From a virus: a stretch of DNA of 35,863 nt. Under the pieces are notes generated by a model, which was not told the origin of the DNA, searched no databases, and was given only the letters and a program-made list of their open reading frames with translations. Positions 1 through 35,863 of this stretch are shown in pieces. The DNA lies in IMG/VR virus record IMGVR_UViG_3300025874_000001, positions 1 through 35,863 of that record; one strand, written 5' to 3'. How positions within the stretch are numbered: the stretch's first letter is position 1; each line of letters begins with the position of its first letter. A program made the position numbers and the translations under genes.

Positions 1-201
1 TATTACTCTCCGTTAAGGATGAAAAAGGACGCAGACTTGCGGATGATCTTGATGGCTTCAGTAGGGGAGATGCAGTAGTCCCGAATCATATCGTCAACCT
101 CAATGCAGAGGGAAGCTAGAGTGAAGAAGTCGAGATGCCGATCGGATTTAACGTGCGTGATGGTGACGCAGGGATGGTCTTGACCAAATGTTGGCTCCTC
201 G
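1..201. repeat. Terminal overlap, copy A (identical to 35663-35863)
   Basis: Read directly. The string tattactctccgttaaggatg...ttggctcctcg at 1-201 recurs base for base at 35663-35863. This implies a circular or circularly permuted 35,662-bp unit. Confidence 0.95.
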
Positions 202-239
202 TAGGAGATCCAGAATAGTTCGGTTTTGAATGAGTTCAT
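3..239 (-). CDS. Hypothetical protein (78 aa)
   Basis: ATG at 237-239 and TAA at 3-5. It belongs to the leftward gene block. No motif recognised. Confidence 0.6.
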   Translation of the reverse strand: MNSFKTELFWISYEEPTFGQDHPCVTITHVKSDRHLDFFTLASLCIEVDDMIRDYCISPTEAIKIIRKSASFFILNGE

Positions 240-284
240 AGTGTATTATTGTGGTTGTGGTTATTTTTAGTAGGTAATCAAAGA

Positions 285-314
285 TAGAAATATACGCTGT
301 TTACCCGATATAAT
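285..314 (+). promoter_or_regulatory. Possible sigma70-like promoter for the opposite-strand ORF 344-610
   Basis: TAGAAA (285-290), 18-nt spacer, then a perfect TATAAT (309-314) about 30 nt upstream of ATG 344/350. Only meaningful if the host uses sigma70-type promoters. Confidence 0.25.
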
Positions 315-343
315 TTTTCCTTGAGTTGAGTTATGATTGGTGG

Positions 344-610
344 ATGAAAATGCTCTGCCTATTCTTCCTGCTTGTTTCCAATTCACTTATCGCCTCACCA
401 GCAGCTATCGAGGTTCTGTCCGCTAGTGGCCTTACGCATTCGATTGCCCAAGCTAGGACTATTTATGCCGACATTGGTGACAGCGTATTCTTCAAGCAAG
501 TAGAGCCATCCGAGGGTATGCTGCTGCTTACTGATAATGGAGTCATAAAGTTCAAGCCGGGTGCTGAAAGTAATCGTGTGGTAGTTGCGGTGGTAAAGAA
601 TTACTCATAG
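344..610 (+). CDS. Small secreted or membrane-anchored protein, encoded antisense to the surrounding block
   Basis: The ORF track starts at TTG 326; the first ATGs are at 344 and 350. The N-terminus MKMLCLFFLLVSNSLIASPAA looks like a signal peptide. It fills a 375-bp gap in the minus-strand block that has no minus ORF of 60 aa or more. Confidence 0.4.
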   Translation: MKMLCLFFLLVSNSLIASPAAIEVLSASGLTHSIAQARTIYADIGDSVFFKQVEPSEGMLLLTDNGVIKFKPGAESNRVVVAVVKNYS

Positions 611-614
611 CGCA

Positions 615-776
615 TCATAATGAATTAGTAGCCTCATCCTTGAGGGCAGCGATTGCCTGCTTGAGTTGATTGTTCTCCTCCTGTAACCGGAGGTTCTCAT
701 TGCGTAGGTAGATGAAGTTCTCCCTTACATCCATAATGATGTCCGCAAGTGGTGGTTCGTTTAGGTTATCTGTCAT
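615..776 (-). CDS. Leucine-zipper/coiled-coil protein (53 aa)
   Basis: Internal ATG at 776 of track ORF 615-929. The product is MTDNLNEPPLADIIMDVRENFIYLRNENLRLQEENNQLKQAIAALKDEATNSL, with heptad leucines. It overlaps the end of the upstream HTH gene by 11 nt. Confidence 0.5.
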   Translation of the reverse strand: MTDNLNEPPLADIIMDVRENFIYLRNENLRLQEENNQLKQAIAALKDEATNSL

Positions 777-1119
777 AATGTTTTTGAGTTGTTTCCGTTT
801 TGGAAATAGTTGGTAGTTGATAATTAGGTAGCTTGAACTGTCGCCGCCATAGTGCGTAGGTTGACTTGTGGATGCCGGACTGATCAGCTGCTGTCTCAAG
901 TGATATACCACTGTCCCGCATTGCGTCAATCTTTTTCACTACCTCGGCCTTCTCCTCGGTGCTGAGTCGATGAGTAATTCGGTTGCAGTTACTGCCAGGG
1001 ATAAAGTGTCGTGTCCCTGCTGCCGCCTCAATCCTCTCATTGTCCTCAACCTCCTTGGCAATCCGAGCTGCTGCCCATTCCATAAAGCTGCTGTTTGATT
1101 CTGCTGTTGTTTCGTACAT
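766..1119 (-). CDS. Helix-turn-helix protein resembling IS3-type OrfA (HTH_Tnp_1-like) DNA-binding domain
   Basis: STEEKAEVVKKIDAMRDSGISLETAADQSGIHKSTYALWRRQF matches the pattern of IS3-family OrfA HTH domains as I recall it. No transposase catalytic ORF follows. Confidence 0.5.
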   Translation of the reverse strand: MYETTAESNSSFMEWAAARIAKEVEDNERIEAAAGTRHFIPGSNCNRITHRLSTEEKAEVVKKIDAMRDSGISLETAADQSGIHKSTYALWRRQFKLPNYQLPTISKTETTQKHYDR

Positions 1120-1124
1120 TCTTC

Positions 1125-1319
1125 TTATTTAGTTAATTCCTTTGTTGATAGTATTTTTCCTGTGCCTCCTCGCTTGAAGACACAGACACCGCTCTTGTCG
1201 GGCATCTTCTTGAGAAGCAGGCGCACTGCTCCTTGTTCATCGTGCGCCCACTTGTAAGTCCTGCCGACGTAGCCTTCTGGCATATCGTCGTGGTGTGTTC
1301 TGATCTCGTACTCAGTCAT
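1125..1319 (-). CDS. Hypothetical protein (64 aa)
   Basis: ATG at 1317-1319. It overlaps the upstream gene by 4 nt, which suggests translational coupling. Confidence 0.55.
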   Translation of the reverse strand: MTEYEIRTHHDDMPEGYVGRTYKWAHDEQGAVRLLLKKMPDKSGVCVFKRGGTGKILSTKELTK

Positions 1320-1561
1320 AGGAACAGGATGGTGAAGCCGTAGCCTCCATTAGTCCCTATCACGTTGTAGTTAATCCACTCCTCGGCCTCCTCTTCGGTC
1401 ATCCCTTGCTCTACAAATAGTCGAGTCATTATCTCGTATTCGTAAACTAGGTTGCCATTGTGGTCAGTCCCTACTACAGCGTCGTCGAGTCCGTCAAACC
1501 GGATGGCCTCGGGGTCGCAGCAGTCAAGATGCCGTTCGATATCTGATATTGGTTTAATCAT
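1316..1561 (-). CDS. Hypothetical conserved small phage protein (81 aa)
   Basis: ATG at 1559-1561, tightly packed in the operon. The C-terminal pattern EEAEEWINYNVIGTNGGYG resembles a recurrent small phage protein of unknown function. Confidence 0.55.
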   Translation of the reverse strand: MIKPISDIERHLDCCDPEAIRFDGLDDAVVGTDHNGNLVYEYEIMTRLFVEQGMTEEEAEEWINYNVIGTNGGYGFTILFL

Positions 1562-1562
1562 A

Positions 1563-2324
1563 TTACATTCTCAAGAGCCAGTAAAGCTCAGCGCATTTCT
1601 TTGCTACCTTGATACCCTTGTCAAGCTCCTTGTCATTCCAGACCTTGTGGTGGTGCTTCTTGGTATCGCAGTCAATGATTACGGAGATACAGCCTGGCAG
1701 GTAGTCCAGCTTGCGCTCCTTCATTAGCATATAAGCTTCGATGCCGAGCTGCTGGCAGTCCTTGTCATAGCACTTAGCCTTGCCCTTGGTATTTGTACGG
1801 CACTTGTAGTCCGCTAGGAATAGCTTATCGTCGCTGTCGTAGCCAATGAAGTCCACGCTGCCAGCGATCTTGATTCGACTGCTTGCAATGATGTGCTCAC
1901 AGGATACAGGCTTTACGCCCTCCTCGTGAACCCAATCCACAAACGGCATAGCCCATTCATTCCAGACGCTGTCATCCGGCGCACTACCCTCGGCGAGGTA
2001 GTTATGATTAATGAAGTCCTCGATTACCTTGTGGACTGTCGTACCGAACTCCGAGGACTCAATAGTTTCACCCGTAGCCGGATGCTCCCTTGTGCCATAG
2101 GTAAGACGCTCTAACTCCTGCCAAGCTAGGCTAGGGTATGCCCTCGCTAGTTGCGCCATCATACGGGGCTTATAGATGCTATCAAGGAACGCATCCTTTA
2201 CGATGCCAAGCACAGTCGTAACAGAAGGATACACCTTCGCTACTTTCCGCGCTTGTGCGGGTGTCATTATGTCGGCCTCGAACTCAGGGTTCAGGACATC
2301 GTTGCAATTATAGAAGTGGCTCAT
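1563..2324 (-). CDS. PD-(D/E)XK (RecB/Cas4/YqaJ-like) exonuclease
   Basis: GSVDFIGYD ... LADYKCR gives a D ... D/E-x-K core. It is followed by a QhxxY-like motif (CQQLGIEAYML). The same genome encodes an ERF annealing protein. Confidence 0.6.
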   Translation of the reverse strand: MSHFYNCNDVLNPEFEADIMTPAQARKVAKVYPSVTTVLGIVKDAFLDSIYKPRMMAQLARAYPSLAWQELERLTYGTREHPATGETIESSEFGTTVHKVIEDFINHNYLAEGSAPDDSVWNEWAMPFVDWVHEEGVKPVSCEHIIASSRIKIAGSVDFIGYDSDDKLFLADYKCRTNTKGKAKCYDKDCQQLGIEAYMLMKERKLDYLPGCISVIIDCDTKKHHHKVWNDKELDKGIKVAKKCAELYWLLRM

Positions 2325-2509
2325 TTTCTTTTCTTTCCGTATGTTGGGTACGATGCGCGTCCCGTTTTGGTACGCCGTGCATCTTTAATTAGACCTAGCT
2401 GCCGGAAGTGGTCAACCGCCTGGCGACCCTCCTCCATTAGCTTGCGATTCCGCATTACTGATTCGTAAAGGTCAGCGAACTTGTTTGCTAGTTGACTTGC
2501 GTTACTCAT
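2321..2509 (-). CDS. Hypothetical basic protein (62 aa)
   Basis: ATG at 2507-2509. It has 1-nt and 4-nt overlaps with its neighbours. Confidence 0.5.
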   Translation of the reverse strand: MSNASQLANKFADLYESVMRNRKLMEEGRQAVDHFRQLGLIKDARRTKTGRASYPTYGKKRK

Positions 2510-2775
2510 TACAGCTCCTCTTGGTCCATAATGAACTCCACACCTTCGCGGAGGATGTCGATGCGCTGCTCTGATTCCGCAAAGTAACGGCCAGCGTACA
2601 GCTCAATATTCTCTTGGTCAATAATGATTAGAGTATCCTGTCCGAGTGTGCTTTGGTCGGATTCCGGTATCATTGCACCTACCCAAATGAAACGCAGTTG
2701 CTCCTCCGCGATGAAGTGCAGGAGGTCATCGGAACTGCGGCGTAATGTTTCTAGTTCTGTTTTTTCTGTATCCAT
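2509..2775 (-). CDS. Hypothetical acidic protein (88 aa from the first ATG)
   Basis: The track ORF starts at TTG 2799. The first ATG is at 2773-2775 (MDTEKTELETL...), 10 nt after the upstream stop. Confidence 0.5.
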   Translation of the reverse strand: MDTEKTELETLRRSSDDLLHFIAEEQLRFIWVGAMIPESDQSTLGQDTLIIIDQENIELYAGRYFAESEQRIDILREGVEFIMDQEEL

Positions 2776-2785
2776 TGTATTGTCT

Positions 2786-2929
2786 TTAGAATTTAGCAAT
2801 GAGGGTGGCGACCAGTAGCATAATGCTGCCGCCTAGACAGCAGGCCAGCACCACACAGGCGGAGTAAAAGACCTTCTCGCCGCCTTTGACGAGATGATCG
2901 AGGTTAGTATTTTCTTTACGGTTTTTCAT
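2786..2929 (-). CDS. Small C-terminally anchored membrane protein (47 aa)
   Basis: Internal ATG at 2927-2929 gives MKNRKENTNLDHLVKGGEKVFYSACVVLACCLGGSIMLLVATLIAKF, with one hydrophobic helix. The longer track ORF would run into the operator-like intergenic region. Confidence 0.4.
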   Translation of the reverse strand: MKNRKENTNLDHLVKGGEKVFYSACVVLACCLGGSIMLLVATLIAKF

Positions 2930-3052
2930 TTTTATTGCGTTCTTATCGGTGTTTAGGTATATCAAGGCTTGACATACTTTTTGATGTGATGTGTACCTTA
3001 AGACAGTCAGCCCTTGGTAGTCAATCATTAATTAATATAAAAAAGGGAGTCA

Positions 3053-3082
3053 ATGACTGACAGTCATATGACTGACAGCCAT
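3053..3082. promoter_or_regulatory. Tandem 15-bp palindromic operator-like sites
   Basis: ATGACTGACAGTCAT (3053-3067) is a perfect palindrome. It is immediately followed by ATGACTGACAGCCAT (3068-3082). A related GACAGTCAG lies at 3002-3010. The sites sit in the 160-bp gap between two minus-strand genes. Confidence 0.5.
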
Positions 3083-3091
3083 ATGGTGGGC

Positions 3092-3367
3092 TTAGATTAG
3101 GTCCAGGGTCTCCTGAAAGATGGTCGCCCTGTCATCGTGGCTAAGTGACTCAATCGGTAGCTCACGGGGTGTCTCGCTGTCAGTCCAGTAGACTAGTTTC
3201 ACGATCTCGAACCCGTCAAGGTCGCGCTCCTCCCAAGCTTCTGTGACTTGGGACTCCCCGGCTTCGCTGCTGCTCTCGCAATGAGTTGTCACGGCCTCCG
3301 CTTCGACTGTTATGTCAAAGTATTTGTTGGGCCGTAGCTCGATGCCTTCTAGTTGTATAGTTTTCAT
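3092..3367 (-). CDS. Hypothetical acidic protein (91 aa), N-terminus MKTIQLEGIE
   Basis: ATG at 3365-3367. The first 10 codons are repeated at 4207-4235. Confidence 0.55.
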   Translation of the reverse strand: MKTIQLEGIELRPNKYFDITVEAEAVTTHCESSSEAGESQVTEAWEERDLDGFEIVKLVYWTDSETPRELPIESLSHDDRATIFQETLDLI

Positions 3368-3399
3368 TATGCGAATGTGATTTGGTTTTTATCTTTTGG

Positions 3400-4065
3400 C
3401 TACTGGCAGGTAAAGTCCGAGAGGTAGTCAGTTGACGCAATAGCCTTCTGCCGCGCCCACATTTCGAGTCCTTTGGCCTGCCAGTAGCCGCGGTTCCAGC
3501 CTGTGCCATCGCACGATTCAATGCCCATCGCCTCTAGCTCGTAGAGTTTCTCCGGCGAATTGCAGCGCAGCACGTGAACCCTAGGAAAGGCCCTTGCCCA
3601 CATCTCTACTGTCTGCCACTTCCATTCTGTCGTGCCGCCAATGGCAATAACTTCGGGACGCGGAAATAATGAGCGCACGTCGTCGCGTGTCATACCATCC
3701 TGTACGGCCACCGCCAAGGGTATGCCGCAGGACTGGATGATCGGCGCGTAGGTGCTCCACTGCTCGATGGTGGCAGCTCCGTCACCAATGACGTCGGGGA
3801 CGATGGCCCATCGCGCTTGTGTCTTTTGGGACTGCGACCAAACGAGCAAACGCCTCCACTCATCTTCTTTTTTCGCCCACTTGTCGTGGTCAAAGCAGTT
3901 AGCTCGCATATCCCAACAGCTAAACGCCCCATTATCGAGTGCGTACGGAAACCAGGGCCAAGGGCCGCGCTGCGCCCCCGGTGAAAACAAATGGCCGATG
4001 CGCCCAGTCTCACGACCAAGGCAATGCCAGAACCATCCAGTAGAGTTTGCAGGCATTACCAGCAT
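3400..4065 (-). CDS. Putative TGT-fold / DpdA-like DNA (deaza)guanine transglycosylase
   Basis: Alternating strand/loop motifs: YALDNGAFSCWD, WAIVPDVIGD, LAVAVQDG, VIAIGGTTEWK, RVHVLRCNSPEKL and ESCDGTGW. These resemble the DSGAFS ... PDv.gd ... iGG ... HlLG ... DS.DS.W pattern of phage DpdA / tRNA-guanine transglycosylase barrels as I recall them. Not verified by search. Confidence 0.4.
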   Translation of the reverse strand: MLVMPANSTGWFWHCLGRETGRIGHLFSPGAQRGPWPWFPYALDNGAFSCWDMRANCFDHDKWAKKEDEWRRLLVWSQSQKTQARWAIVPDVIGDGAATIEQWSTYAPIIQSCGIPLAVAVQDGMTRDDVRSLFPRPEVIAIGGTTEWKWQTVEMWARAFPRVHVLRCNSPEKLYELEAMGIESCDGTGWNRGYWQAKGLEMWARQKAIASTDYLSDFTCQ

Positions 4066-4235
4066 CGTATTGGCCTTTCTAAGCGACCCTCACGGATCAG
4101 TGCTAGCATTAATACTTCAGCCTCGTAAAGGGTATACATTCCCTCATCAATCATAAATGCCTCGACGTGGTCAAGCCACTCAGCGCGTGATAATCCCGGC
4201 ACAGTTTCGATGCCTTCTAGTTGTATTGTTTGCAT
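4056..4235 (-). CDS. Hypothetical protein (59 aa), N-terminus MQTIQLEGIE
   Basis: Hand-translated because it is below the track cut-off. ATG at 4233-4235 and TAA at 4056-4058. It overlaps the start of the DpdA-like gene by 10 nt. Confidence 0.45.
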   Translation of the reverse strand: MQTIQLEGIETVPGLSRAEWLDHVEAFMIDEGMYTLYEAEVLMLALIREGRLERPIRCW

Positions 4236-4236
4236 A

Positions 4237-4392
4237 TTAATCAGCGTTTAATTGTTCAAGTGTCCGGCATCCTGTCCGTACGAACAGAATATCTAGGTAA
4301 GTTTCCTCGCTGTTGCCATTGATTGACGTAACAAGGGAAATTTCCTCTTCGGTTGCTATGTTCATTTCTAGTAGTGTTTCGTATGTGTCCAT
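4237..4392 (-). CDS. Hypothetical acidic protein (51 aa)
   Basis: Hand-translated as MDTYETLLEMNIATEEEISLVTSINGNSEETYLDILFVRTGCRTLEQLNAD. It is preceded by AAGAAAGGAAAACA (SD-like) and ends 1 nt before the next start. Confidence 0.45.
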   Translation of the reverse strand: MDTYETLLEMNIATEEEISLVTSINGNSEETYLDILFVRTGCRTLEQLNAD

Positions 4393-4411
4393 TGTTTTCC
4401 TTTCTTATGTG

Positions 4412-4696
4412 TTATCTGTTTACCCAAGTTTCCCAATCACAAAGCATATCCGCCGGAGCGCATTCTGTGAATATAATAAACCTATCGAGTAGCTCCAAAG
4501 GAGCTTCCGTGTCAAGGGTTTGCTTGAACTTCAAGCGTATAGGTTTGAGCCAGCGTTCGTGAACCAGTAGCGAATTCCAATCGCAAGCGGGTAAAAGCCT
4601 TTTGAAAAGCTCCCATTCCGGCTTTGGTTCTACTAGATCATCCCAAGCTTTCAGCCTATCCTGAGAGAATGTTTTTAATGCAGTTTCTATTTTCAT
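4412..4696 (-). CDS. Hypothetical protein (94 aa)
   Basis: ATG at 4694-4696, preceded by the same 20-nt leader as the next gene (AAGAAAGGAAAAAA). Confidence 0.55.
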   Translation of the reverse strand: MKIETALKTFSQDRLKAWDDLVEPKPEWELFKRLLPACDWNSLLVHERWLKPIRLKFKQTLDTEAPLELLDRFIIFTECAPADMLCDWETWVNR

Positions 4697-4720
4697 TTTT
4701 TTCCTTTCTTATGTGTTAAA

Positions 4721-4739
4721 GCTTAATCTTCGATTAAGC
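4721..4739. promoter_or_regulatory. Perfect 8-bp stem / 3-nt loop hairpin
   Basis: GCTTAATC-ttc-GATTAAGC. It lies directly upstream (on the minus strand) of the conserved 20-nt leader of gene 4412-4696. Confidence 0.4.
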
Positions 4740-4830
4740 GCGATATGCAGCGGGCTTTTCCCGTGCCTCAATTACTGTTAAAGTCCCTTGTTTACTACGT
4801 GTCAAATATATTTTTAAAATATTTTCCCCT

Positions 4831-4875
4831 TGCTTCCCTAGCTTGCCTTCCCTGGCTCGCCTTCCCTGGCTCGCC
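4831..4875. repeat. Tandem 14-bp CT-rich repeats (about 3 copies)
   Basis: GCCTTCCCTGGCTC occurs at 4845-4858 and 4859-4872. A degenerate copy, GCTTCCCTAGCTT, lies just upstream. The repeats sit within a 300-bp non-coding island. Confidence 0.8.
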
Positions 4876-5043
4876 GGCGTCTTTCCTTAGTCATTACCCT
4901 TGCCACAAATCAAAAGGCCTTGTGTGGCCTTATAGCCGGTAAACCTTGTGCATTGGCGGGGTTTTCGGCGTGCCTTGCTTATGACTAGGCACAAAAAAAG
5001 CGCACGCTTTCACGTACACCGATTTGCTTTGTTTTTATGAGTG

Positions 5044-5259: not shown

Positions 5260-5305
5260 AATAAAAAGCGGTTTTACAGAACCGCAAACTGATTTGAGTT
5301 AGGTT

Positions 5306-6199
5306 TTACGCTTCGATCTGTGCAATGATTTGTTTCAATTCAGCAAGTGAGAGAATGAAGTTTTCCTTTATGCCTGCCGCTAGGTTTTCGGTTTGCTTGG
5401 CTTTTAATATGCCATATTTGCCCGCTTTATCCAAGAAGCGCAAATCAGTCGTATCCATAGAGAAGCAATCAACTAGGTTGCAAGCTTGCTCAAATTCATC
5501 GGAGCGCACCGGAAAGGCAATTGCTTGTCTGCGTGCTTGTGCTTGTTTATAGTGCTTTAAGCGCGCTTTATTTGCTTGGCTATAACTGAACGTTAAGTGA
5601 TAGTTAGGCAAAGGCACACGTTCAGGGTTTTTCGTATAATCGTAAAACTGCACCTTTGGAAAGCTTTGGTAGATCTCATAAAAGTCCAAGTCGCTTGTGC
5701 CATTCAAACGAACTGCAAACTTGTGGCCTTTCCTTTCCGCCCGTGCGCTTGCCAGTCGAATTTCGTGCTTTAACACGTCGCTTGCAATGTCTTTCCGATA
5801 TACTGTGAGCCAAGTTTTAACGATTCTAGAAACGTCAATCACGTGCTTTCCGGCCCGCTTTTCAATGAGCGAGTGCCCGCTGCCAACTAGGCAAGCCAAA
5901 CGGCAGCCAGTGCTTGCAAATGAGCAAATATCTTTGCCCGCGTTTTTACCAGCTGAAAGGTAAAGGATAAGCGTTTGAAAGTTTTCCTTTTTACCCTTTT
6001 CAACCTTCTGAGACGAATCCACAGAAGCAAAGTAGCTAATGCCTAATTCTTTAAAGAGCTTGCCCTTTGTGGTGTACGTTAACGCTTCAAAGTACTTTTC
6101 AGCTTTTAACAGAATACCAAACTTCTTTGCGGGCATTGGTTCAAGTAAATAGGCAAGTGCTAATTTCTTGATCTTTGATAGTGCTTTTTTGTTTTTCAT
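5306..6199 (-). CDS. GP88-family-like protein (297 aa), function unknown
   Basis: The combination CSFASTGCRLACLVGSG ... VRLNGTSDLDF ... VQFYDYTKNP matches my recollection of the Pfam GP88 phage family. It is the first gene of the leftward block. By eye it is more AT-rich than neighbouring genes. Confidence 0.4.
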   Translation of the reverse strand: MKNKKALSKIKKLALAYLLEPMPAKKFGILLKAEKYFEALTYTTKGKLFKELGISYFASVDSSQKVEKGKKENFQTLILYLSAGKNAGKDICSFASTGCRLACLVGSGHSLIEKRAGKHVIDVSRIVKTWLTVYRKDIASDVLKHEIRLASARAERKGHKFAVRLNGTSDLDFYEIYQSFPKVQFYDYTKNPERVPLPNYHLTFSYSQANKARLKHYKQAQARRQAIAFPVRSDEFEQACNLVDCFSMDTTDLRFLDKAGKYGILKAKQTENLAAGIKENFILSLAELKQIIAQIEA

Positions 6200-6338
6200 T
6201 TATTAAAGGCGGTTTTACAGTTCCGCGAACTGGTTATGTGTTAAGAGTGAGACGCTATCAATGCGGGTAAATAAAAGGTTGTCAAGTATATATTTCAAAT
6301 ACTTTTACCCGTCAAAGCCTACCACTATATGCAAAGCA

Positions 6339-6395
6339 ATAGCCGGGTGAATGATAGCCGGGTGAATGACGATCTTAATAATAGCCGGGTGAATG
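6339..6395. repeat. Iteron set 1: three direct copies of ATAGCCGGGTGAATG
   Basis: Exact 15-mers at 6339-6353, 6354-6368 and 6381-6395. Confidence 0.9.
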
Positions 6396-7645: not shown

Positions 7646-7825
7646 TTGAGCACTAAAGGAAGTAAAATGTACCACTCGGGATGGGAGAAGTTCGGAGATA
7701 TAATACAGATTTCTGATGGTTGGGTAACCGCTCGCCTAGATGGGGACAAGGGTATTGGATGCTGGGAGGTAGACGCACCGTATATTAAAATATTAGATGA
7801 AGGGGGCTGCAACGATGAGCACTAA
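7646..7825 (+). CDS. Hypothetical protein (59 aa from TTG 7646, or 52 aa from ATG 7667)
   Basis: Hand-translated as (M)STKGSKMYHSGWEKFGDIIQISDGWVTARLDGDKGIGCWEVDAPYIKILDEGGCNDEH. GGAGGA lies 5 nt upstream of the TTG. The N-terminal codons are repeated at 7815. Confidence 0.4.
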   Translation: MSTKGSKMYHSGWEKFGDIIQISDGWVTARLDGDKGIGCWEVDAPYIKILDEGGCNDEH

Positions 7826-7958
7826 AGGAAGCGGCCCCCGCAAGGGACACAATGCTGAGAAGCAGCGTAAAAACTACGATGATATTGATTGGTCAAATAA
7901 AACCAAGTCAACTAAATCAAAGCCACCTCCAACCGAACAACCCAAAGCAAGCAAATGA
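7815..7958 (+). CDS. Hypothetical basic protein (47 aa), N-terminus MSTKGS
   Basis: Hand-translated as MSTKGSGPRKGHNAEKQRKNYDDIDWSNKTKSTKSKPPPTEQPKASK. It shares an ATGA overlap with the next gene. Confidence 0.4.
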   Translation: MSTKGSGPRKGHNAEKQRKNYDDIDWSNKTKSTKSKPPPTEQPKASK

Positions 7959-22947: not shown

Positions 22948-23670
22948 ATGGCGGATATTACAATTACTCCAACGGGTGCAGCATTTGACCCAACAGATAC
23001 CGTAACTTCAACTCGGCTCAATGAAGCCCGTAACCCTACGGCTGCCTTGACTACTGGTTCTATTGTACCAACTGATTTGAGCACTGGTGCTCCAAGTTGG
23101 GACGGTAGTGGAACTCTCAACGTTATTGGAAGTCTAGCTTCTGGCTCTATTTTTACAAGTAACGAAGCGATAGAAATTAATCAAAGTGGTACTGGCGACC
23201 GCAATGCATATGTAGATTTTCATACTGCTGACCCTAGCGGTACTGATTTCAATGCTAGAATTTATCGTGCTGGTGGTTTAGATAGCGACTTGGAAATATT
23301 AAACTCTGGAACAGGAAGCATTGTTGTTAATTCTACAGTTGCCCAAGTTAGTAACAATGCTCAATCCGTTGCTACTAAGGCTTATGTTGATAGTGTGGTT
23401 GCTCCAAGCACTTATACAGGAGGAGAAAGTGTAACGTTTCCTAATGGTTTGATTATGAAGATGGGATCTACTAGTAGTAAGACACTTGATTTCGGTACTC
23501 CTTTTCCAGGGGGTGTCGTAAGTGTCACTATCTCCAATCAAAGTAGTTACGGCGATACTTACGGAAATGCATCATTTGTGACCAGCTCTAGTCCTAGTCA
23601 ATTTACAATTAGCTCGGGAGTAAGTGTGAGCGGCAATGGACCTTGGTTCTGGCAAGCAATCGGATACTAA
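22948..23670 (+). CDS. Tail fibre protein 1 (240 aa)
   Basis: A KAYVD collar motif is followed by FPNGLIMKMGS and a C-terminal WFWQAIGY. The C-terminal domain is paralogous to that of the next gene. Confidence 0.65.
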   Translation: MADITITPTGAAFDPTDTVTSTRLNEARNPTAALTTGSIVPTDLSTGAPSWDGSGTLNVIGSLASGSIFTSNEAIEINQSGTGDRNAYVDFHTADPSGTDFNARIYRAGGLDSDLEILNSGTGSIVVNSTVAQVSNNAQSVATKAYVDSVVAPSTYTGGESVTFPNGLIMKMGSTSSKTLDFGTPFPGGVVSVTISNQSSYGDTYGNASFVTSSSPSQFTISSGVSVSGNGPWFWQAIGY

Positions 23671-23707
23671 TGAACCCCATCCTCCAATCAGTACAACAAT
23701 TTAAATT

Positions 23708-24340
23708 ATGGCCATTATAAATAAAGGAACAGCTTTCTCCAACGGGGAACAACTATCAGCAAGCAAGCTTAATGATTTAGTAGACGGAGCTACCTTTGGT
23801 ACTGACTCCGTTGATAACGCTAGTACAATCGTAAACGCCAACGGAGCTATTACGGTTCGTGACAGCGGTGTTACCGCTGCTAAACTAGCTACGGGTTCTG
23901 TTACTACAAATAAGATCGTAGACGCTAATGTTACTTTTGCTAAGCTTACCGATGTCATTGACGATGACACAATGGATACAGCTACCAATACGACCTTGGC
24001 TACTTCGGAAAGCATTAAGGCTTATGTTAATGGAACATCGGATTTATCTACCAATGGTTATCAAATTTTTCCAAGTGGATTAATTATGCAGTGGGGAACA
24101 TATAATACTGCAGGAACTCCTGCTGGTAATGTGACTATTGATTTTCCAATTCATTTTACAACAGCTTGTTTAAATCTTTCCGCAACACTAAGACAACCAC
24201 TTGGGAGTGCTGATGGAGCAAACACTGTGTCCGCAGAATTGGACGACTCTTTGCCACTTGAAAAATTCACGCTTGGATTTGATGAACACGACGTTCCAGC
24301 AGGCGATAAATATGCGTGGTGGCAAGCAATCGGATACTAA
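23708..24340 (+). CDS. Tail fibre protein 2 (210 aa)
   Basis: A KAYVN collar motif is followed by FPSGLIMQWGT and a C-terminal AWWQAIGY. The N-terminus has repeated (D/T)xxV(T/D)xxK(L/I) segments typical of fibre shafts. Confidence 0.65.
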   Translation: MAIINKGTAFSNGEQLSASKLNDLVDGATFGTDSVDNASTIVNANGAITVRDSGVTAAKLATGSVTTNKIVDANVTFAKLTDVIDDDTMDTATNTTLATSESIKAYVNGTSDLSTNGYQIFPSGLIMQWGTYNTAGTPAGNVTIDFPIHFTTACLNLSATLRQPLGSADGANTVSAELDDSLPLEKFTLGFDEHDVPAGDKYAWWQAIGY

Positions 24341-24822
24341 TGAACCCTCTCCTTCAATCAGTACAACTAGCGTTGCAAAACGCTACGCAAAAGGAAGCCC
24401 TTGTCTACATCGACAAGGTAGTGGACTTCTGTATTGAAAAGGAGAACGGTAAGGTACTGGACGGATGGCCCCGTGACTTAATACAACTACTTGTATCCTA
24501 CCATATGGCTAAGGATACCTTTATTGCAGAGCAGGACGCAGAGGGTAATATCTTAGGGGTCTTTATGTGGTATAATTGCGACGAGGAAGACGACTGGTTC
24601 TTTGTTCAGAACTGGGAGTCGGACAAGGAAGACGGCAATGCAATCTTTATGGCCTTCCTATTTGCGGAGGATAATCAAACTTTTAAGAAACTTACACATA
24701 ACTTCATTACTCAATGCCCTGAGGTTATGCAGAAAAAACTACTAGGCATACGATACAGGCAAGGTGCTCCCACTAAAGTGGTATACAGCACTGCATTATT
24801 CAACAAAATCTTAGGAATATAA
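24340..24822 (+). CDS. Hypothetical protein (160 aa from ATG 24340)
   Basis: The track ORF begins at 24316 inside the fibre gene. ATG 24340 (MNPLLQSVQ...) overlaps the fibre stop as TAATG. It is also the start that is duplicated as a relic at 23670. Confidence 0.5.
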   Translation: MNPLLQSVQLALQNATQKEALVYIDKVVDFCIEKENGKVLDGWPRDLIQLLVSYHMAKDTFIAEQDAEGNILGVFMWYNCDEEDDWFFVQNWESDKEDGNAIFMAFLFAEDNQTFKKLTHNFITQCPEVMQKKLLGIRYRQGAPTKVVYSTALFNKILGI

Positions 24823-31622: not shown

Positions 31623-32029
31623 AGTTCTTGTGTATTGATGGTGTGTGCGCTGCGATTGTATAGGTAACCGGTACGCTTGGTTATTATTTGTACTGCTTCA
31701 AAGTCCGTAGTCCAAGGCATCTCACGATCCTCGAACCCGAAGTCGTAGTCATCCCGAATTAGCTTAGAGATATTCCAGACATACAGAAGATGTTGGTATC
31801 CATTAACATAGATGAAATCCTTCTTTACTGATTCAGCGATACCGATATTGGTATCAAGCTTTAGCTGCTCAATAATCCAGGGATCATATGCCTTTCGGCG
31901 TACCTTGATTTCCACTAAGTAGTCAATGCTCTCGTAATCAAAAGGACTGAACTGGTCCTCGGCCTTTATCAGCTTATTCATCTTAGGAAAAGCCAACATT
32001 ATATTTTGTGCTACTTGTTCTTCTGTCAT
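31619..32029 (-). CDS. PD-(D/E)XK-like nuclease-fold protein (136 aa)
   Basis: SPFDYESIDYLVEIKVRRK gives D-x9-E-x-K. It overlaps both neighbours by 1-4 nt. Confidence 0.3.
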   Translation of the reverse strand: MTEEQVAQNIMLAFPKMNKLIKAEDQFSPFDYESIDYLVEIKVRRKAYDPWIIEQLKLDTNIGIAESVKKDFIYVNGYQHLLYVWNISKLIRDDYDFGFEDREMPWTTDFEAVQIITKRTGYLYNRSAHTINTQEL

Positions 32030-33363
32030 TATCCGAACCTCCCTGTGCAGTGATAGAATTTAAACGTACCTCCGATGTCGCGCTCACCTTCACGGTTCTT
32101 AGCTATCTCGTAGGTTAGACTGGTATAACCCCCACGGGCATCTTGACTCTTTGACGAATCAACATCTCCGTTTGATGGGTACATAAGCAGAACAACGTCG
32201 GCATCATTCTCGATGTCCCCGGAATCCTTTAGGTCATACAGTTTGAGTCGGCCATTCTTGGCTCCCTCTCGGTTGACCTGTGCTAGTAGGATAATGGCGA
32301 TATTGAGATCAATAGCCATCTGCTTAATTTTGTGAGAGATACTGGCGATGCCCTCGGCCTTACCCATCTTGGAAGAAAAAGGTATAAGCTGTAAGTAATC
32401 AATGACCAGTAGCTTTACTCCGTGCTTGTTGACGAACTGTCGTGTCTGGCTGTATAGATCATCGGCACTCTTGACTGAGTGCGAGGTGTACACAGGCATT
32501 GTCTTGAGATTAGAGATAGTCTCGTGAACTCGCTTGACCTGTTCCGGCTGGGCTACGTTGTCCTCCACGCTGCGTAGGTTAACGCCGGAGATAACTTGCG
32601 TCAGTCGCTTAGTAAGCTGCTTCTGTGGCATCTCCAAGGAGAAGACTCCACAAGCGTGACCATCCTTTGCTACAGCCTGGGATACAATATACAGGGCCAG
32701 TGCTGACTTACCACAGGAGGTAGGTGCAGCTACAGTCATTACTTCACCAGCGGCTATGCCCCGATTGCCAAGCTCACTATCCAAGTTATTGGTATGCGTC
32801 TTAACAACGTCAGGTACGTAGTCCCCTGCCTGCATCCTAGCGATGTCCTCCAGTAGCTCGTCAGCGGACGAACCGATCCCGGTTTTATCTTGGCTGAATA
32901 AAGGACGTGCAGTAATCTCGGACTCAAGGGTGCTACGAATCTCGTCATAGCTAAGAGCCTCGGACTCGACATTCTCGACAGCAATCCGGCAGGACCGCAT
33001 AATCTCACGGAGCCTAGCCTTCTCTGCTACGATGTTAGCATAGAACTTAGCCGTAAGCTCGCTGTAAACGCCGTCAGCTACCGATAGGATACCTGCTATG
33101 CCACCGACATCGTCAAGCCCTCTAAGGGACTTCAGATGCTCTGCAATGGACACCTCGTCAATAGGCTTACTCAGTTGAGCAAGGTCACCTATAGCTTGGA
33201 ACAGTAATCTAAATCGTAGTACGTAAAAATCCTCGGCCTCCAGTAAAGGACGCACCATATCATATACGGATGCGTCACCTGGGAATAGGCAGGATGCTAT
33301 TAATTTTCTTTCAGCCTCGGCACTATGTGGCTGGTTCGTCGTCAGTAGGTTTATTTCGTTCAT
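32029..33363 (-). CDS. dnaB: DnaB-type replicative DNA helicase
   Basis: N-terminal AEAERKLIASCLF, Walker A APTSCGKSALALYI, Walker B LLVIDYLQL, and an arginine-finger region AQVNREG. The track start at 33369 is TTG; the first ATG is 33363. Confidence 0.9.
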   Translation of the reverse strand: MNEINLLTTNQPHSAEAERKLIASCLFPGDASVYDMVRPLLEAEDFYVLRFRLLFQAIGDLAQLSKPIDEVSIAEHLKSLRGLDDVGGIAGILSVADGVYSELTAKFYANIVAEKARLREIMRSCRIAVENVESEALSYDEIRSTLESEITARPLFSQDKTGIGSSADELLEDIARMQAGDYVPDVVKTHTNNLDSELGNRGIAAGEVMTVAAPTSCGKSALALYIVSQAVAKDGHACGVFSLEMPQKQLTKRLTQVISGVNLRSVEDNVAQPEQVKRVHETISNLKTMPVYTSHSVKSADDLYSQTRQFVNKHGVKLLVIDYLQLIPFSSKMGKAEGIASISHKIKQMAIDLNIAIILLAQVNREGAKNGRLKLYDLKDSGDIENDADVVLLMYPSNGDVDSSKSQDARGGYTSLTYEIAKNREGERDIGGTFKFYHCTGRFG

Positions 33364-33535
33364 TATCAAGTAATTCTACCAGAGAACGAAGGACTTGTCC
33401 AAGGGACTTATGGGCTACACGATTTAACTCTGGCATATGATAACAATCAATTGTGTTATAGATGGAGAGTGATACTTCGGCGGCTTCTTTTATTTTAGTC
33501 ATTTCGTTGCGGTCTATTTTATTATGTTGGGTCAT
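33323..33535 (-). CDS. Hypothetical protein (70 aa)
   Basis: ATG at 33533-33535. It overlaps the dnaB start. Confidence 0.45.
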   Translation of the reverse strand: MTQHNKIDRNEMTKIKEAAEVSLSIYNTIDCYHMPELNRVAHKSLGQVLRSLVELLDNERNKPTDDEPAT

Positions 33536-33590
33536 AAGAATTACTTGCCCCCTACCGAATTGTAAGGGGCAAGCATCTTAGCACAGGGAC

Positions 33591-33926
33591 TTACTCCGAC
33601 TCTGCTCTTTCGAGCATCCCTATGGCTATCAACGAGTAGCCAATTAGGTCGCGGAATATGTCCTTGGATTGGTCGCCATTAGTAACTACTTTTAGCTGAC
33701 CATCGTTACAGAAAGCCTTCGCTCTCTGGAATTTGTCCTGCATCCGAATGCATACACCTGTTAAGGGATGAACACCGAACTCGGAGGAGCCGTCAAAGTT
33801 TGCGAAGGGGTTATCGCAGCTTTCGCCTCCTGTGTAATCCGAGCATTTGTGAGCGGTTAGTTCCAAAATGGAACTGACCTCGTCACGCCGGAATGTTTCC
33901 CACCAGATCTTATCGAATGAGGACAT
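33591..33926 (-). CDS. DUF1599-like (all-alpha, MazG-related; nucleotide-modification-associated) protein
   Basis: HKCSDYTGG ... GVCIRMQDKFQRAKAF ... SKDIFRDLIGYSLIAIGMLE matches the K..DYG ... R..DK..R ... D...DL.nY pattern I recall for DUF1599. Confidence 0.45.
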   Translation of the reverse strand: MSSFDKIWWETFRRDEVSSILELTAHKCSDYTGGESCDNPFANFDGSSEFGVHPLTGVCIRMQDKFQRAKAFCNDGQLKVVTNGDQSKDIFRDLIGYSLIAIGMLERAESE

Positions 33927-33928
33927 TC

Positions 33929-34186
33929 TTAGAATGGGGTGTTGTCATTGGTTGGCGCACTTGCAGCTTTTGGCTCAGATGAACCACCGGCTGCTGCTCC
34001 GCCCTCTACTGGATTCAATGCCAGGGAGAGGAAGTTAGTACCGCTCTTGGCCGTCTTCTTCCAGCCCTTGAGGTAGTAGTCCTTACCTTCGACATTAATC
34101 TTCCCGCTGTAGTCAGGATGATTTGGTTTTTCTTTACGGTCATTGACGAAGAATGTACCGGAGTTTGTGTTATCGTATTGTGACAT
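33929..34186 (-). CDS. Mini ssDNA-binding-like protein (85 aa) with an SSB-type C-terminal tip
   Basis: GTFFVNDRKEKPNHPDYSGKINVEGKDYYLKGWKKTAKSGTNFLSLAL has a DUF736-like/OB-like pattern. It is followed by a Gly/Ala/Ser linker and a terminal NDNTPF, comparable to the bacterial SSB DDDIPF. Confidence 0.35.
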   Translation of the reverse strand: MSQYDNTNSGTFFVNDRKEKPNHPDYSGKINVEGKDYYLKGWKKTAKSGTNFLSLALNPVEGGAAAGGSSEPKAASAPTNDNTPF

Positions 34187-34212
34187 AATATTACTTTCGT
34201 TATTGGTTATGA

Positions 34213-34458
34213 TTAGGCGACATCTTCATCCAGCTTTACGGCACGGATGGTTGTGTCAGGTTGTTCTAGCTTGACGCTCAAGTGTTTAGCAAGTGCGTCG
34301 ATCTTCTGATTAAGCAATTGATTCTGCTTATCCAAGAGGTTATTGTGCAGGTGTACTGCTTCAATGTTTTCTTTCATCTCCCCGATGATAGTTTCGTAGT
34401 GGTTGTCCAGCATTTGAATGCTTGAGATGACATCTATGATTTCGTTTCGTAAGTCCAT
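34213..34458 (-). CDS. Coiled-coil protein (81 aa)
   Basis: Internal ATG at 34456-34458 of track ORF 34213-34773 (MDLRNEIIDVISSIQ...). The upstream part of that ORF overlaps the ERF gene out of frame. Confidence 0.45.
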   Translation of the reverse strand: MDLRNEIIDVISSIQMLDNHYETIIGEMKENIEAVHLHNNLLDKQNQLLNQKIDALAKHLSVKLEQPDTTIRAVKLDEDVA

Positions 34459-34486
34459 ATTATTTGTGCGCAACAGAATGTTTCGC

Positions 34487-34963
34487 TTAGAATCCTTGTG
34501 ATTGTTTAGTTGTAGGTTTAGGCAATTTGCTGCCGTGGTCATTAGTAGCGTCCGGATCTTTGGTATCGTCAATAGCAAAGAGTCCATTAAGTGCATATTT
34601 TCTGGCGTAGGATGAGGCACTGCCAGTAATCTGGGCATCGTCCATACCTTTCTTTGTCTCCGCCTCACGAGCGTAGGCATTAACGTGAATCGAGCTATCA
34701 CTGCTATCATCTGTGGATGCAATAACGGCGGTTGACTTGACGTATACCCGGCCACCGACCTCAACCATTTCATCGGTGATTACTAAGGTGCAGGACCACT
34801 CAGCCAGCAATGGCTTGACGGATGTAAGGATGTCCTCAGCGGAACGGTAGCGGTAACCACCGAACTTATTAGTCTGTCCCTTCGGTGCTTTCAAAGAGGA
34901 CTGAATCCCCTGGAGTTTCTTATGTATGTTCATCGTGATTAATTTGGTTTTGTTATTACTCAT
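34487..34963 (-). CDS. erf: ERF-family single-strand annealing protein
   Basis: KFGGYRYRSAEDILTSVKPLL ... ITGSASSYARKYALNGLFAIDD is characteristic of the ERF superfamily. Confidence 0.75.
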   Translation of the reverse strand: MSNNKTKLITMNIHKKLQGIQSSLKAPKGQTNKFGGYRYRSAEDILTSVKPLLAEWSCTLVITDEMVEVGGRVYVKSTAVIASTDDSSDSSIHVNAYAREAETKKGMDDAQITGSASSYARKYALNGLFAIDDTKDPDATNDHGSKLPKPTTKQSQGF

Positions 34964-35402
34964 ATGTTTTTTTGGTTAGTTTACGGAACAGCTCTTTACG
35001 CTGCTTTTGATTTTTACAGGAATCAAGATCACCTTCACTTGCTCCTAGGTCTTTTAACTCTGTGACTTGTTCAGAGGCTGTCAAGGAATTTCCGAACTTT
35101 CTTGTAAGTTGCGTAAGTCCTACGGGATGAAGGACATCGGTCATCTCCTGCTCCAAGTAAGCGGCCATTGCCTCTAAAGTATTTGGCAAATCTTCCTTAT
35201 TACCCTTGCACATCTTGAGGAAAAAGTTCTCAACCTTTCCGAGAAGACTGTTGGCCTGGCGAGAGATTACACCGCGGACCATTCCGGTCTGGTGGTCGTG
35301 ATCCAGCACCCAGTCCTGCGTCTTAATGTCCAAGATGGGACAGGAGATTGGCTTGTTAGCCTCCCGGAACTCCTTGATTTGGTTCTGTGATAAGTAAGTC
35401 AT
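34956..35402 (-). CDS. Endonuclease VII-like (HNH-fold) junction resolvase, cysteine-poor variant
   Basis: VLDHDHQTGMVRGVISRQANSLLGKVEN aligns with T4 endo VII HLDHDH...GKVRGLLCNLCNAAEG. Only one of the four zinc-ligand cysteines is retained. Confidence 0.65.
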   Translation of the reverse strand: MTYLSQNQIKEFREANKPISCPILDIKTQDWVLDHDHQTGMVRGVISRQANSLLGKVENFFLKMCKGNKEDLPNTLEAMAAYLEQEMTDVLHPVGLTQLTRKFGNSLTASEQVTELKDLGASEGDLDSCKNQKQRKELFRKLTKKTYE

Positions 35403-35491
35403 AGGTATGTTGATTTGGTTATAATTAATCCTGAGGCAGTCCCAAGAGAAGCTCCGATGCAGTAAGTTAATCTAGTTTTCCACTCACTCAT
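35399..35491 (-). CDS. Possible 30-aa hydrophobic peptide
   Basis: Hand-translated as MSEWKTRLTYCIGASLGTASGLIITKSTYL. It shares ATGA-type overlaps with both neighbours. Confidence 0.25.
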   Translation of the reverse strand: MSEWKTRLTYCIGASLGTASGLIITKSTYL

Positions 35492-35657
35492 ATTCTGGGT
35501 AGTCATCTCTAAGCCACTCGATGACATCTGTTGCGCCGAACATTAAGTCCCTAATCTCTCCGTCCAGAGAAGTATTAACTCCGATTGCGTTGTCGAGGGC
35601 CTCTCTGGCTTGTTTCATAAGCTCTAGTTTCTGTGTGTATTTTTCTTGGTTCATCAT
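35484..35657 (-). CDS. Hypothetical protein (57 aa)
   Basis: Hand-translated as MMNQEKYTQKLELMKQAREALDNAIGVNTSLDGEIRDLMFGATDVIEWLRDDYPEYE. It starts 8 nt after the stop of the 78-aa gene once the circle is closed. Confidence 0.4.
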   Translation of the reverse strand: MMNQEKYTQKLELMKQAREALDNAIGVNTSLDGEIRDLMFGATDVIEWLRDDYPEYE

Positions 35658-35662
35658 TATTG

Positions 35663-35863
35663 TATTACTCTCCGTTAAGGATGAAAAAGGACGCAGACTT
35701 GCGGATGATCTTGATGGCTTCAGTAGGGGAGATGCAGTAGTCCCGAATCATATCGTCAACCTCAATGCAGAGGGAAGCTAGAGTGAAGAAGTCGAGATGC
35801 CGATCGGATTTAACGTGCGTGATGGTGACGCAGGGATGGTCTTGACCAAATGTTGGCTCCTCG
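35663..35863. repeat. Terminal overlap, copy B (duplicate of 1-201, containing a truncated second copy of CDS 3-239)
   Basis: Base-for-base identity with 1-201. The minus-strand ORF here is cut by the window edge. Confidence 0.95.

Follow-up and report, generated by a model that had tools for sequence, protein, structure and literature searches.

The subject of this study is a complete phage genome of 35,863 bases from IMG/VR (record IMGVR_UViG_3300025874_000001; "the window" denotes this whole stretch), in which five pairs of short direct repeats lie on gene boundaries and bracket accessory genes, here called cargos. We propose that the repeats fall into two classes. For pairs 1, 2, 4 and 5 we consider it likely that the repeat is the boundary of a resident gene, duplicated when foreign DNA was inserted and used later as short homology for loss or transfer of the cargo; in such a "start capture" the cargo borrows the start of its new neighbor. 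Pair 3 forms the second class, a reiterated leader element. A first-pass annotation of the sequence had suggested that gene-boundary sequences serve as recombination joints for gaining and losing accessory genes. This holds insofar as indel endpoints and blocks of identity among relatives coincide with the repeats, but the repeats of pairs 1, 2, 4 and 5 do not appear to have pre-existed as joints. For the comparison, 155 related IMG/VR loci (labeled L001 etc.), all of them metagenome assemblies, were aligned to the window.

Five Repeat Pairs on Gene Boundaries

All five pairs were found at the positions given in the first-pass annotation, each on a start/stop junction (Table 1). Identity amounts to 27/29 for pair 1 (3339/4207), 24/25 for pair 2 (4390/4694, with an exact 20-mer at 4395/4699), 28/34 for pair 3 (5261/6202), 16/18 for pair 4 (7646/7815) and 45/48 for pair 5 (23650/24320, with an exact 28-mer). 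No pair is 100% identical over its full stated length (the earlier range was 83–100%). Exact cores measure 16–28 nt in four pairs and 12 nt in pair 3.

Ranked by length, the dispersed exact direct repeats of the genome are headed by four of the five pairs. Exact direct repeats of at least 16 nt number five, against 0.19 expected (100 dinucleotide shuffles, maximum 2), and four of them are the pairs described here; at 18 nt or more there are three, and none in the shuffles. Boundary location was assessed by ungapped x-drop extension, which tolerates mismatches; the exact cores end a few bases short of the codons. Among the eight best extended repeats (at least 16 matches) there are four with both copies lying across a start or stop codon, compared with a mean of 0.021 under permutation; four was not reached in any of 20,000 permutations (P<5e-5), so chance is excluded. 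Pair 3 is weaker as a pairwise repeat, but its element is conserved in the lineage, where it has 29 distinct copies. No motif is common to all five pairs.

One further direct repeat (2907-2929/11472-11494; 21/23, GTATTTwCTkTACGGTTTTTCAT) has its first copy at an internal gene start and its second inside the 694-aa gene 10460-12544, in the opposite coding sense; it may be due to chance.

A Resident Start Duplicated Around Foreign DNA

The segment between the copies of pair 1 does not conform to the earlier description of single genes bracketed by repeats, since it holds two open reading frames (ORFs), a truncated fusion gene and a 221-aa gene. Locus L158, from outside the lineage, carries homologous DNA at 3860-4701, which aligns with cargo 1 in a single high-scoring segment pair of 72% nucleotide identity. 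This alignment ends exactly at 4206 and 3368, i.e., at the inner edges of both repeat copies. In L158 an 80-aa protein with its own N-terminus is encoded upstream of the 221-aa homolog. The 59-aa gene of the window (4056-4235) consists of the first 10 codons of gene 3092, joined in frame to the last 49 codons of that 80-aa protein. Because the homology with L158 stops at the inner edges and the 59-aa gene is a fusion, the 29-mer was not a pre-existing linker. Judged from these sequences, the 29-nt repeat is a duplication of the resident start, made by joining 839 bp of foreign DNA after codon 10 and rejoining it before the ATG.

Both in pair 1 and in pair 4, the repeat corresponds to the first codons of the resident gene and covaries with that gene between lineages. 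In L111, for instance, a local "TIEL" variant occurs in both copies of repeat 1. At the 24 covered sites, the 221-aa cargo is present twice and absent from 22 relatives.

The 221-aa product belongs to a family of 2,267 members, all annotated as "hypothetical" and devoid of a Pfam domain, which share an invariant LDNGAF motif. Searches of Pfam, NCBIfam and PDB sequences gave no match for it. Its AlphaFold model (pLDDT 92) is a TIM barrel with tRNA-guanine transglycosylase (TGT) as best PDB matches, and PHROG gives weak support for the same likeness. By its modeled fold, the cargo is probably a base-exchange enzyme and not a recombinase. It occurs in 38 IMG/VR loci, many of them from unrelated phages, where the homolog often lies beside a gene with an IYLCGPING N-terminal motif. 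The product of this gene resembles, in that motif alone, nucleoside 2-deoxyribosyltransferases, and the two travelling partners may possibly constitute a DNA or tRNA base-modification (counter-defence) module. In the unrelated phages the 221-aa homolog is again located between duplicated starts (MTQRKNI, KSKRGGKRKGAG), but the resident genes are other ones. Where the cargo is absent from that unrelated lineage, a RusA-like gene stands directly before the resident gene, and the repeat is present in a single copy.

Cargos That Borrow Start and Stop

Both copies of repeat 2 read TAA-CACAT-AAGAAAGGAAAA-n-AATG on the coding strand, i.e., stop, ribosome binding site (RBS) and start. Gene 4412-4696 is found at three of seven covered sites (L079, L081, L091) and is absent from L076. 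The leader TAACACATAAGAAAGGAAAA-ATG of this pair stands before different first genes in different relatives.

For pair 4, the 59-aa gene 7646-7825 is present at 3/48 covered sites and absent in 45/48; the cargo was seen in L076, L104, L116 and L198. In L116 and L198 the 7646-like and the 7815-like gene both start with ATGGGTAAAGGA, while the window has TGAGCACTAAAGGAAG twice. Cargos 1, 2 and 4 have no start codon or RBS of their own, and the duplicated one is predicted to serve. Around 2960-3030 in L195, L196, L197 and L199, a 7646-like gene contains an 18–19-nt tandem duplication (TAGAATGTACCACTCAGGG twice), and its captured start has one G too many; the cassette seems to be frameshifted or decaying in these relatives.

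A Cassette Slot for Fiber Genes

The first-pass annotation had included structural genes in the pattern, and rightly so. The fiber locus is a cassette slot with, as its right border, the conserved 5' end of the downstream 160-aa gene 24340-24822 (g160), and it holds one, two or more different cassettes among relatives. The g160 5' sequence (TA-ATGAACCCnCTCCTnCAATCAG) follows fiber genes with unrelated C-termini in at least 17 relatives, and remnants of this 5' end are located at -33, -77, -565 and about -700 nt in different relatives. These remnants indicate that joints into g160 were formed repeatedly and independently, each a few codons into the gene. The left remnant in the window opens a 16-codon mini-ORF (23670-23720) that overlaps the start of fiber 2. 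Fiber genes fibA and fibB are distantly paralogous: their products share 29% identity across 117 aa and the terminal residues WWQAIGY. The repeat-5 48-mer is 94% identical, as opposed to 29% at the amino-acid level in the fiber bodies. L048 contains two fiber-2-type genes (7397/8705) with identical N-termini.

A Reiterated Early Leader Element

Pair 3 behaves differently. Its element reads CAGTTTGCGGnnCTGTAAAACCGCyTTTwATwATG on the coding strand, with a hairpin/T-run that abuts the ATG. There are one to three copies per genome, and all 29 distinct copies directly adjoin an early-gene ATG, in the interval 4700-6300 or the equivalent region of relatives. The bracketed genes vary among relatives: in L101, two other genes are flanked by three copies, and gene 5306-6199 is absent in L099. 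Pair 3 is thus a second class, a shared linker before small early genes with different genes between its copies. Such reiterated-linker behavior is seen only for pair 3 and partly for the leader/RBS of pair 2.

No sigma-70-like promoter overlapping either copy on the (-) strand emerged from a consensus scan of 4200-7000, a consensus which may not be the promoter type of the host, and an internal sigma-70 promoter was discarded as an explanation of the element. The copy at 5285-5268(-) has a terminator-like score, with a 6-bp stem and a T-run. In a comparison of 20 copies, the stem is conserved over no more than 4 bp of GC (-4.4 kcal/mol); one change in it is compensatory and two disrupt it. 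A strongly structured RNA was therefore rejected as well.

The nearest counterpart is the promoter-early stem-loop (PeSL) of T4-type phages (Arbiol et al., 2010, PMC2839356; Comeau et al., 2014, PMC4122927). PeSLs, too, are short and conserved and directly precede small non-essential ORFs of a hyperplastic early region; as here, close relatives differ by indels and replacements that end at the motif. It has been proposed that the recombination system of the phage uses PeSLs as homology when cassettes are excised or inserted (PMC2839356, PMC4122927). Yet, a PeSL has a strong sigma-70-like early promoter and a stable stem-loop (terminator or attenuator), and is characterized by excised mini-circles; the scan gave no such promoter for the pair-3 element, of which only the short GC stem is conserved. 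The element works like a PeSL but does not appear to be a member of the PeSL family. In addition, four of the five pairs in the window are duplicated coding starts or ends instead of regulatory cassettes, and the setting is a podovirus-like genome of 35.7 kb with ERF, in contrast to the UvsX system of T4.

Indel Endpoints and Mosaicism Among Relatives

The first-pass annotation expected indel polymorphism at the repeats, and this is seen, with endpoints on the repeats to the base. In relatives without the bracketed segment, the flanking alignments overlap by the repeat length. The overlap is 29 nt (L076, L079, L097) or 24 nt (L083) for 3367->4207, 25 nt (L076) for 4414->4694, and 16–20 nt for 7662->7812/7816 in 16 relatives; for 5301->6194, at pair 3, it is 47–60 nt (L099, L101), with 42–60 nt as the full range of overlaps at this element. 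In the three-way alignments of pairs 1, 2 and 4, the relative keeps one copy, of which the left flank is that of the first copy in the window and the right flank that of the second. Cargos 1, 2 and 4 are minority alleles at covered sites (2/24, 3/7 and 3/48, respectively).

Blocks of identity change at the same places. Against L091, successive blocks are 91.9, 98.7, 96.1 and 86.1% identical, with breaks at 1320/1558, 4871 and 7662/7816; against L076, blocks of 87.5, 98.6 and 89.8% break at the first two repeat pairs. The 98.7% block shared with L091 ends at 4871, within a region (4845-4875) in the early leader/promoter where the 17-nt sequence GCCTTCCCTGGCTCGCC occurs twice with 14-nt spacing.

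Other modules display the same pattern in relatives, at positions occupied by a single copy in the window. An 83-aa gene (MSNNKT) is inserted before the ERF gene (MSNNKTKL) with a 38-nt duplication at window 34944-34981, a 58-aa gene (MKNHKE) before a gene starting MKNRKE (window 2911-2930), and a 194-aa gene at 1558-1571, where the 14 duplicated nt take in the ATG. Duplicated terminator hairpins (15458-15498) enclose a 112-aa gene that follows the capsid gene, and a 681-aa collagen-like (GLQGIQGLQGEAGETG) fiber gene is inserted at window 16825-16846 (L001 1321-3474, upstream of the homolog of the 386-aa gene). The 80-aa ORF 2786-3028 (-) of the window, with an internal ATG at 2929, is probably two genes; inserts of 156–382 bp in relatives fall exactly at 2911-2930 and its downstream part, MKNRKE, runs from 2929.

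A scan of the window and 154 loci for neighboring genes that share their ATG start gave 19 pairs, 12 of which have unrelated bodies; the reversed-sequence controls gave two pairs, one with unrelated bodies. The scan was restricted to ATG, as including GTG and TTG made it noisy (54 matches vs. 25 in the control). The recurrence in other modules and in unrelated phages is observed directly, and boundary duplication is a common pattern, not a universal one.

Genome Context and Coordinates

The genome is podovirus-like. Its early and replication genes form two leftward blocks (about 1-6200 and 30894-35657), and a rightward late block (6891-30736) encodes the terminase large subunit, the major head protein, tail-fiber-like proteins and large internal-virion-like proteins. 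Gene packing is compact, as adjacent genes abut or overlap (TAATG, ATGA). A 25-kb portion queried by megablast against 50,697 deposited phages had no DNA-level match. The nearest deposited phage is Phage C75C1, which has the same replication module; with only 62% capsid identity, it is too remote for indel analysis. A literature search found no paper mentioning it. In IMG/VR the lineage is abundant, with 302 relatives of the protein encoded at 6891-7478 in one scan.

The first-pass annotation also credited the genome with a kit for short-homology recombination, and its four members are confirmed: the ERF protein, the PD-(D/E)XK nuclease and the Endonuclease VII-like protein by Pfam, and the single-strand-binding (SSB)-like protein by PHROG at 3e-16. 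The coordinates of these genes and of the repeats are collected in Table 1.

Table 1. Repeats, cargos and recombination genes of the window.
Feature	Position	Strand	Description
Repeat 1, right copy	3339..3367	-	ATG and first 9 codons of resident gene 3092-3367 (MKTIQLEGIE)
Cargo 1	3368..4206	-	839 bp: last 49 codons of truncated 80-aa gene, 221-aa gene, 32-nt spacer
TGT-fold 221-aa gene	3400-4065	-	GC 0.58
Truncated fusion gene	ORF 4056-4235	-	59 aa
Repeat 1, left copy	4207..4235	-	Captured start (MQTIQLEGIE), in-frame fusion to first gene of the cargo
Repeat 2, copy at start of gene 4237-4392	4390..4414	-	TAA-CACAT-AAGAAAGGAAAA-C-AATG; TAA is the stop of gene 4412-4696
Cargo 2	4415..4693	-	Exactly 93 codons, body of ORF 4412-4696; ATG and stop from the repeat copies
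Repeat 2, copy at 3' end of early leader	4694..4718	-	RBS and ATG of gene 4412-4696
Repeat 3, copy upstream of gene 5044-5259	5261..5294	-	Early-gene leader element
Cargo 3	5295..6201	-	Gene 5306-6199, 297 aa; Pfam GP88, phrog_1617
Repeat 3, copy upstream of gene 5306-6199	6202..6235	-	
Repeat 4, left copy	7646..7663	+	TTG and 5 codons (STKGS), start of cargo gene 7646-7825
Cargo 4	7664..7814	+	Body of 59-aa gene; stop TAA (7823-7825) lies in the right repeat copy
Repeat 4, right copy	7815..7832	+	ATG and 5 codons of resident gene 7815-7958 (MSTKGS)
Repeat 5, left copy	23650..23697	+	Last 7 codons of fiber gene 22948-23670 (WQAIGY*), TAATG, remnant of first 9 codons of gene 24340-24822
Cargo 5	23698..24319	+	Second fiber gene (phrog tail fiber), gene 23708-24340; variable cassette slot
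Repeat 5, right copy	24320..24367	+	End of fiber 2, TAATG, true start of conserved 160-aa gene 24340-24822 (g160)
PD-(D/E)XK nuclease	1563..2324	-	Pfam PF12705, 2.3e-7; candidate partner exonuclease; C75C1 homolog annotated as exonuclease
SSB-like protein	33929..34186	-	phrog_7364 and phrog_18154, 3e-16; no Pfam match
ERF-family single-strand annealing protein	34487..34963	-	Pfam PF04404, 9.7e-39; candidate catalyst
Endonuclease VII-like resolvase	34956..35402	-	Pfam PF02945, 3.1e-10

Several other features were noted. The first 201 bases recur exactly at the end (1-201 = 35663-35863), and ORF 3-239 (-) crosses from unique sequence into this repeat, which could be a true direct terminal repeat or an overlap left by circular assembly of the genome. 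Between the leftward early and the rightward late block, the divergent intergenic region of 700 bp contains two tandem-repeat sets at 6335-6395 and 6466-6526, AATGATAGCCGGGTGAATG three times and AGTGAACAGCAGTGCAGT three times, followed by a G-run; these are candidate iterons (an origin) or regulator-binding sites. Late structural genes share the start context AATAATT-ATGGCrGAyrTTACArTTA (MADVTV, MADITI; 16849-16874/22941-22966), and a second context, TTATGGCATT (MAF...), is shared at 14434-14464/26017-26047. These late structural starts have no Shine-Dalgarno sequence and some early genes have AGGA-type sites, which suggests two modes of translation initiation.

The terminase large-subunit gene (8221-9891) of the window is an intein-free allele. 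In eight relatives, a 311-codon in-frame insertion is present at window 8450-8455, inside the Walker-A motif (GGNR|SGKTT), e.g., at 3191-4127 in L078, 9268-10204 in L097 and 1699-2635 in L110. It begins with Cys (CLAAEQ...) and ends ...VVNHN followed by Ser, an intein signature, and on its opposite strand an HNH-like motif is present in a 241-aa ORF. Gene 30894-31622 (-), which closes the replication block, encodes an HNH_3 endonuclease with a weak AP2-like domain and resembles a free-standing homing-endonuclease gene.

A Model for Start Capture and Its Limits

From the duplicated boundaries, we infer the origin of the founding joints, the role of selection and the later use of short homology as follows. 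Foreign DNA would be joined a few codons inside a resident gene (6–25 past the ATG, or in the RBS/leader) and rejoined upstream of its start. Such an insertion would duplicate the resident boundary: the left copy would give the first cargo gene its start and often its first codons, and the right copy would restore the resident gene. The founding joint would be illegitimate or microhomology-mediated and probably involves two recipient copies plus a donor, or template switching during replication. Selection would keep only products in which both neighbors are intact and the cargo is expressed. Where genes overlap as TAATG or ATGA, an insert would spare both neighbors only with a duplicated junction. 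Short start-proximal duplications would supply the translation start of the cargo and be less prone to immediate loss.

Once present, repeats of 16–48 nt would be substrates for short-homology recombination. Recombination between the two copies would remove the cargo precisely and leave one copy, while recombination with the single copy of a co-infecting relative would move the cassette and create mosaic block boundaries. Erf/Exo pairs efficiently recombine short, diverged homologies and drive phage mosaicism (De Paepe et al., 2014, PMC3945230). An Erf/Exo-type pair is encoded here as well; the relaxed recombination by Rad52-like recombinases in that study concerned temperate coliphages and longer homologies, in contrast to the present lineage, which is known from sequence alone. 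The phage's own ERF and PD-(D/E)XK exonuclease are plausibly the most likely catalyst. As with this enzymology, we infer rather than observe the order of events at each locus and the mechanism by which selection or targeting places the joints.

Several points weigh against this model. About half of the indels overlap by only 1–13 nt (1–5 nt at the indels of genes 1316-1561 and 2321-2509 and of segment 19828-20114), and long duplications are hence not obligatory. At most loci the alignments fit gain as well as loss: an empty site that starts with TTG (L077 type) resembles a deletion, and ACGATG sites could be ancestral. Concordance of the two copies within a genome could be due to gene conversion. 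In the g160 remnant, most variation is at third codon positions, and the mini-ORF of 8 or 16 codons is conserved, such that the remnant may be under selection, e.g., for translational coupling, rather than a mere scar. Strain-switching at shared k-mers in the assemblies could exaggerate mosaic block boundaries, though not create cassettes.

Alternative Explanations

The strongest competitor is a strict linker model, which we regard as possible yet doubtful. Here, conserved boundary sequences pre-exist at many junctions and cassettes are swapped by homologous recombination between them. The pair-3 element, present in one to three copies per genome and flanking different genes in different relatives, fits this scheme, as do the leader TAACACATAAGAAAGGAAAA-ATG before different first genes, the g160 5' sequence behind unrelated fiber C-termini in at least 17 relatives, and the breaks of identity blocks at junctions. 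Pairs 1 and 4 do not, as their repeats are the first codons of the resident gene and are lineage-specific in step with it. Further objections are the chimeric, truncated nature of the fused cargo gene, the change of flanking repeats from phage to phage within one cargo family, and the lack of a motif common to the five pairs; L158 already shows cargo 1 with its own start and an unrelated flank.

Gene starts may also be the preferred integration sites of a recombinase-free cassette system, start capture being a distinct and general route by which compact phage genomes acquire genes and not what survives of random joins; this we find unlikely. The cargo, with one repeat copy, would form a small circle by excision or be copied through template switching, and then re-enter another phage genome, related or not, a few codons past an ATG, capturing the resident start systematically. 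The logic would be that of an integron, with ERF-type annealing as the driving process.

A dedicated mobile-element mechanism (transposon-like target-site duplication, homing endonuclease or integron-like recombinase) that inserts cassettes at gene starts appears highly improbable. It would account for the repeated occurrence of the TGT-fold cargo at gene 5' ends in unrelated phages, and the HNH endonuclease gene 30894-31622 and the intein in the terminase gene of relatives also speak for it. But where a transposable element has a duplication of fixed length, terminal inverted repeats and its own transposase, the duplications here vary from 14 to 65 nt, the cargo ends have no inverted repeats, and no integrase or transposase was found in any ORF. 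The cargos were not found to encode a mobility enzyme, the TGT-fold product has a TIM barrel like transglycosylases, and the pattern recurs with many unrelated cargos. On these grounds, transposition or homing was rejected.

Common descent or convergence, i.e., diverged tandem duplicates that are still alike at their ends or independently selected translation-initiation regions, is scarcely credible. The paralogous fibers with their shared WWQAIGY ends, the AATAATT-ATGGC start context of late genes and a true tandem duplicate of an 85-aa gene in L041 (757/1079) point in this direction. However, the protein bodies in pairs 1, 2 and 4 are unrelated, the repeats are identical at synonymous positions and reach into non-coding remnants, the fiber 48-mer is far more conserved (94%) than the fiber bodies (29% at the amino-acid level), and the exact indel endpoints would be left unexplained. 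Tandem-duplication paralogy was thus set aside, with only the fibers being distant paralogs. Finally, mis-joining of metagenomic contigs is a negligible explanation: although the window and its relatives appear to be assemblies, in which short shared k-mers can switch strains, the same layout of cassette and repeats recurs in independent samples (L091, L111, L076, L116, L198), reading frames are intact and fused in frame, and an assembler cannot make a repeat-cargo-repeat order unless such molecules exist.

Relation to Known Systems

Start capture by boundary duplication belongs with the short-homology and boundary-sequence models of phage mosaicism and represents a known kind of gene gain and loss. 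In the linkers of Botstein and Susskind and the lambdoid boundary sequences, as summarized in PMC2839356 and PMC3029335, non-homologous modules are likewise exchanged between short conserved boundary sequences, and the fiber slot with its g160 border fits that summarized linker model well. The difference is that most "linkers" here are made by the insertion itself, being lineage-specific duplications of a resident start.

The closest known case is gene 68 of Island3 compared with Brujita, where an inserted ORFan shares about 50 bp (18 terminal residues) with its neighbor (Pope et al., 2011, PMC3029335). This was read as recombination between short repeats, with the direction unresolved (PMC3029335). 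There, a C-terminus is duplicated at a single locus in one genome pair; here, it is mostly N-terminal starts, predicted translation starts, at many loci and in hundreds of relatives, with a cargo homolog outside. In T7, lambda and Sf6, according to the work cited in PMC5630979, non-essential DNA is lost precisely between direct repeats of up to tens of bases, with one copy left. As in these indels and in Island3/Brujita, the empty allele keeps exactly one repeat copy and the outer flanks match. Those deletions (Studier, 1979; Kong and Masker, 1994), as far as that source describes them, occurred in the laboratory at fortuitous repeats, in contrast to the boundary repeats and natural gene gain found here. 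Morons (Hendrix/Juhala 2000, as presented in PMC2839356) are similar in being single accessory genes between resident genes of an otherwise syntenic genome. In that account they carry their own promoter and terminator and no flanking repeats, whereas the cargos described here mostly borrow the start of their neighbor; one insert in L110 is flanked by duplicated terminators, unlike the start-borrowing cargos.

What is added here is the number of loci and the hundreds of natural relatives, the duplication of resident starts, and the occurrence of the same cargo with different captured starts in unrelated phages. A literature search of partial coverage found no prior formal description of N-terminal "start capture", which is weak evidence.

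Implications

Whether mosaic genomes arise via short boundary homology or via random illegitimate joining followed by selection has long been debated (PMC3029335, PMC3945230). The lineage described here offers both stages, non-homologous founding joints as in the truncation chimera, and then loss and spread by short homology. With hundreds of relatives, several polymorphic cassettes of 150–900 bp, base-exact junctions and an ERF/Exo pair, the question becomes tractable both experimentally and statistically. For annotation, it follows that when small neighboring phage genes begin with the same codons, they probably represent insertion scars rather than paralogs. The TGT-fold base-exchange cargo, in turn, looks like counter-defence equipment.

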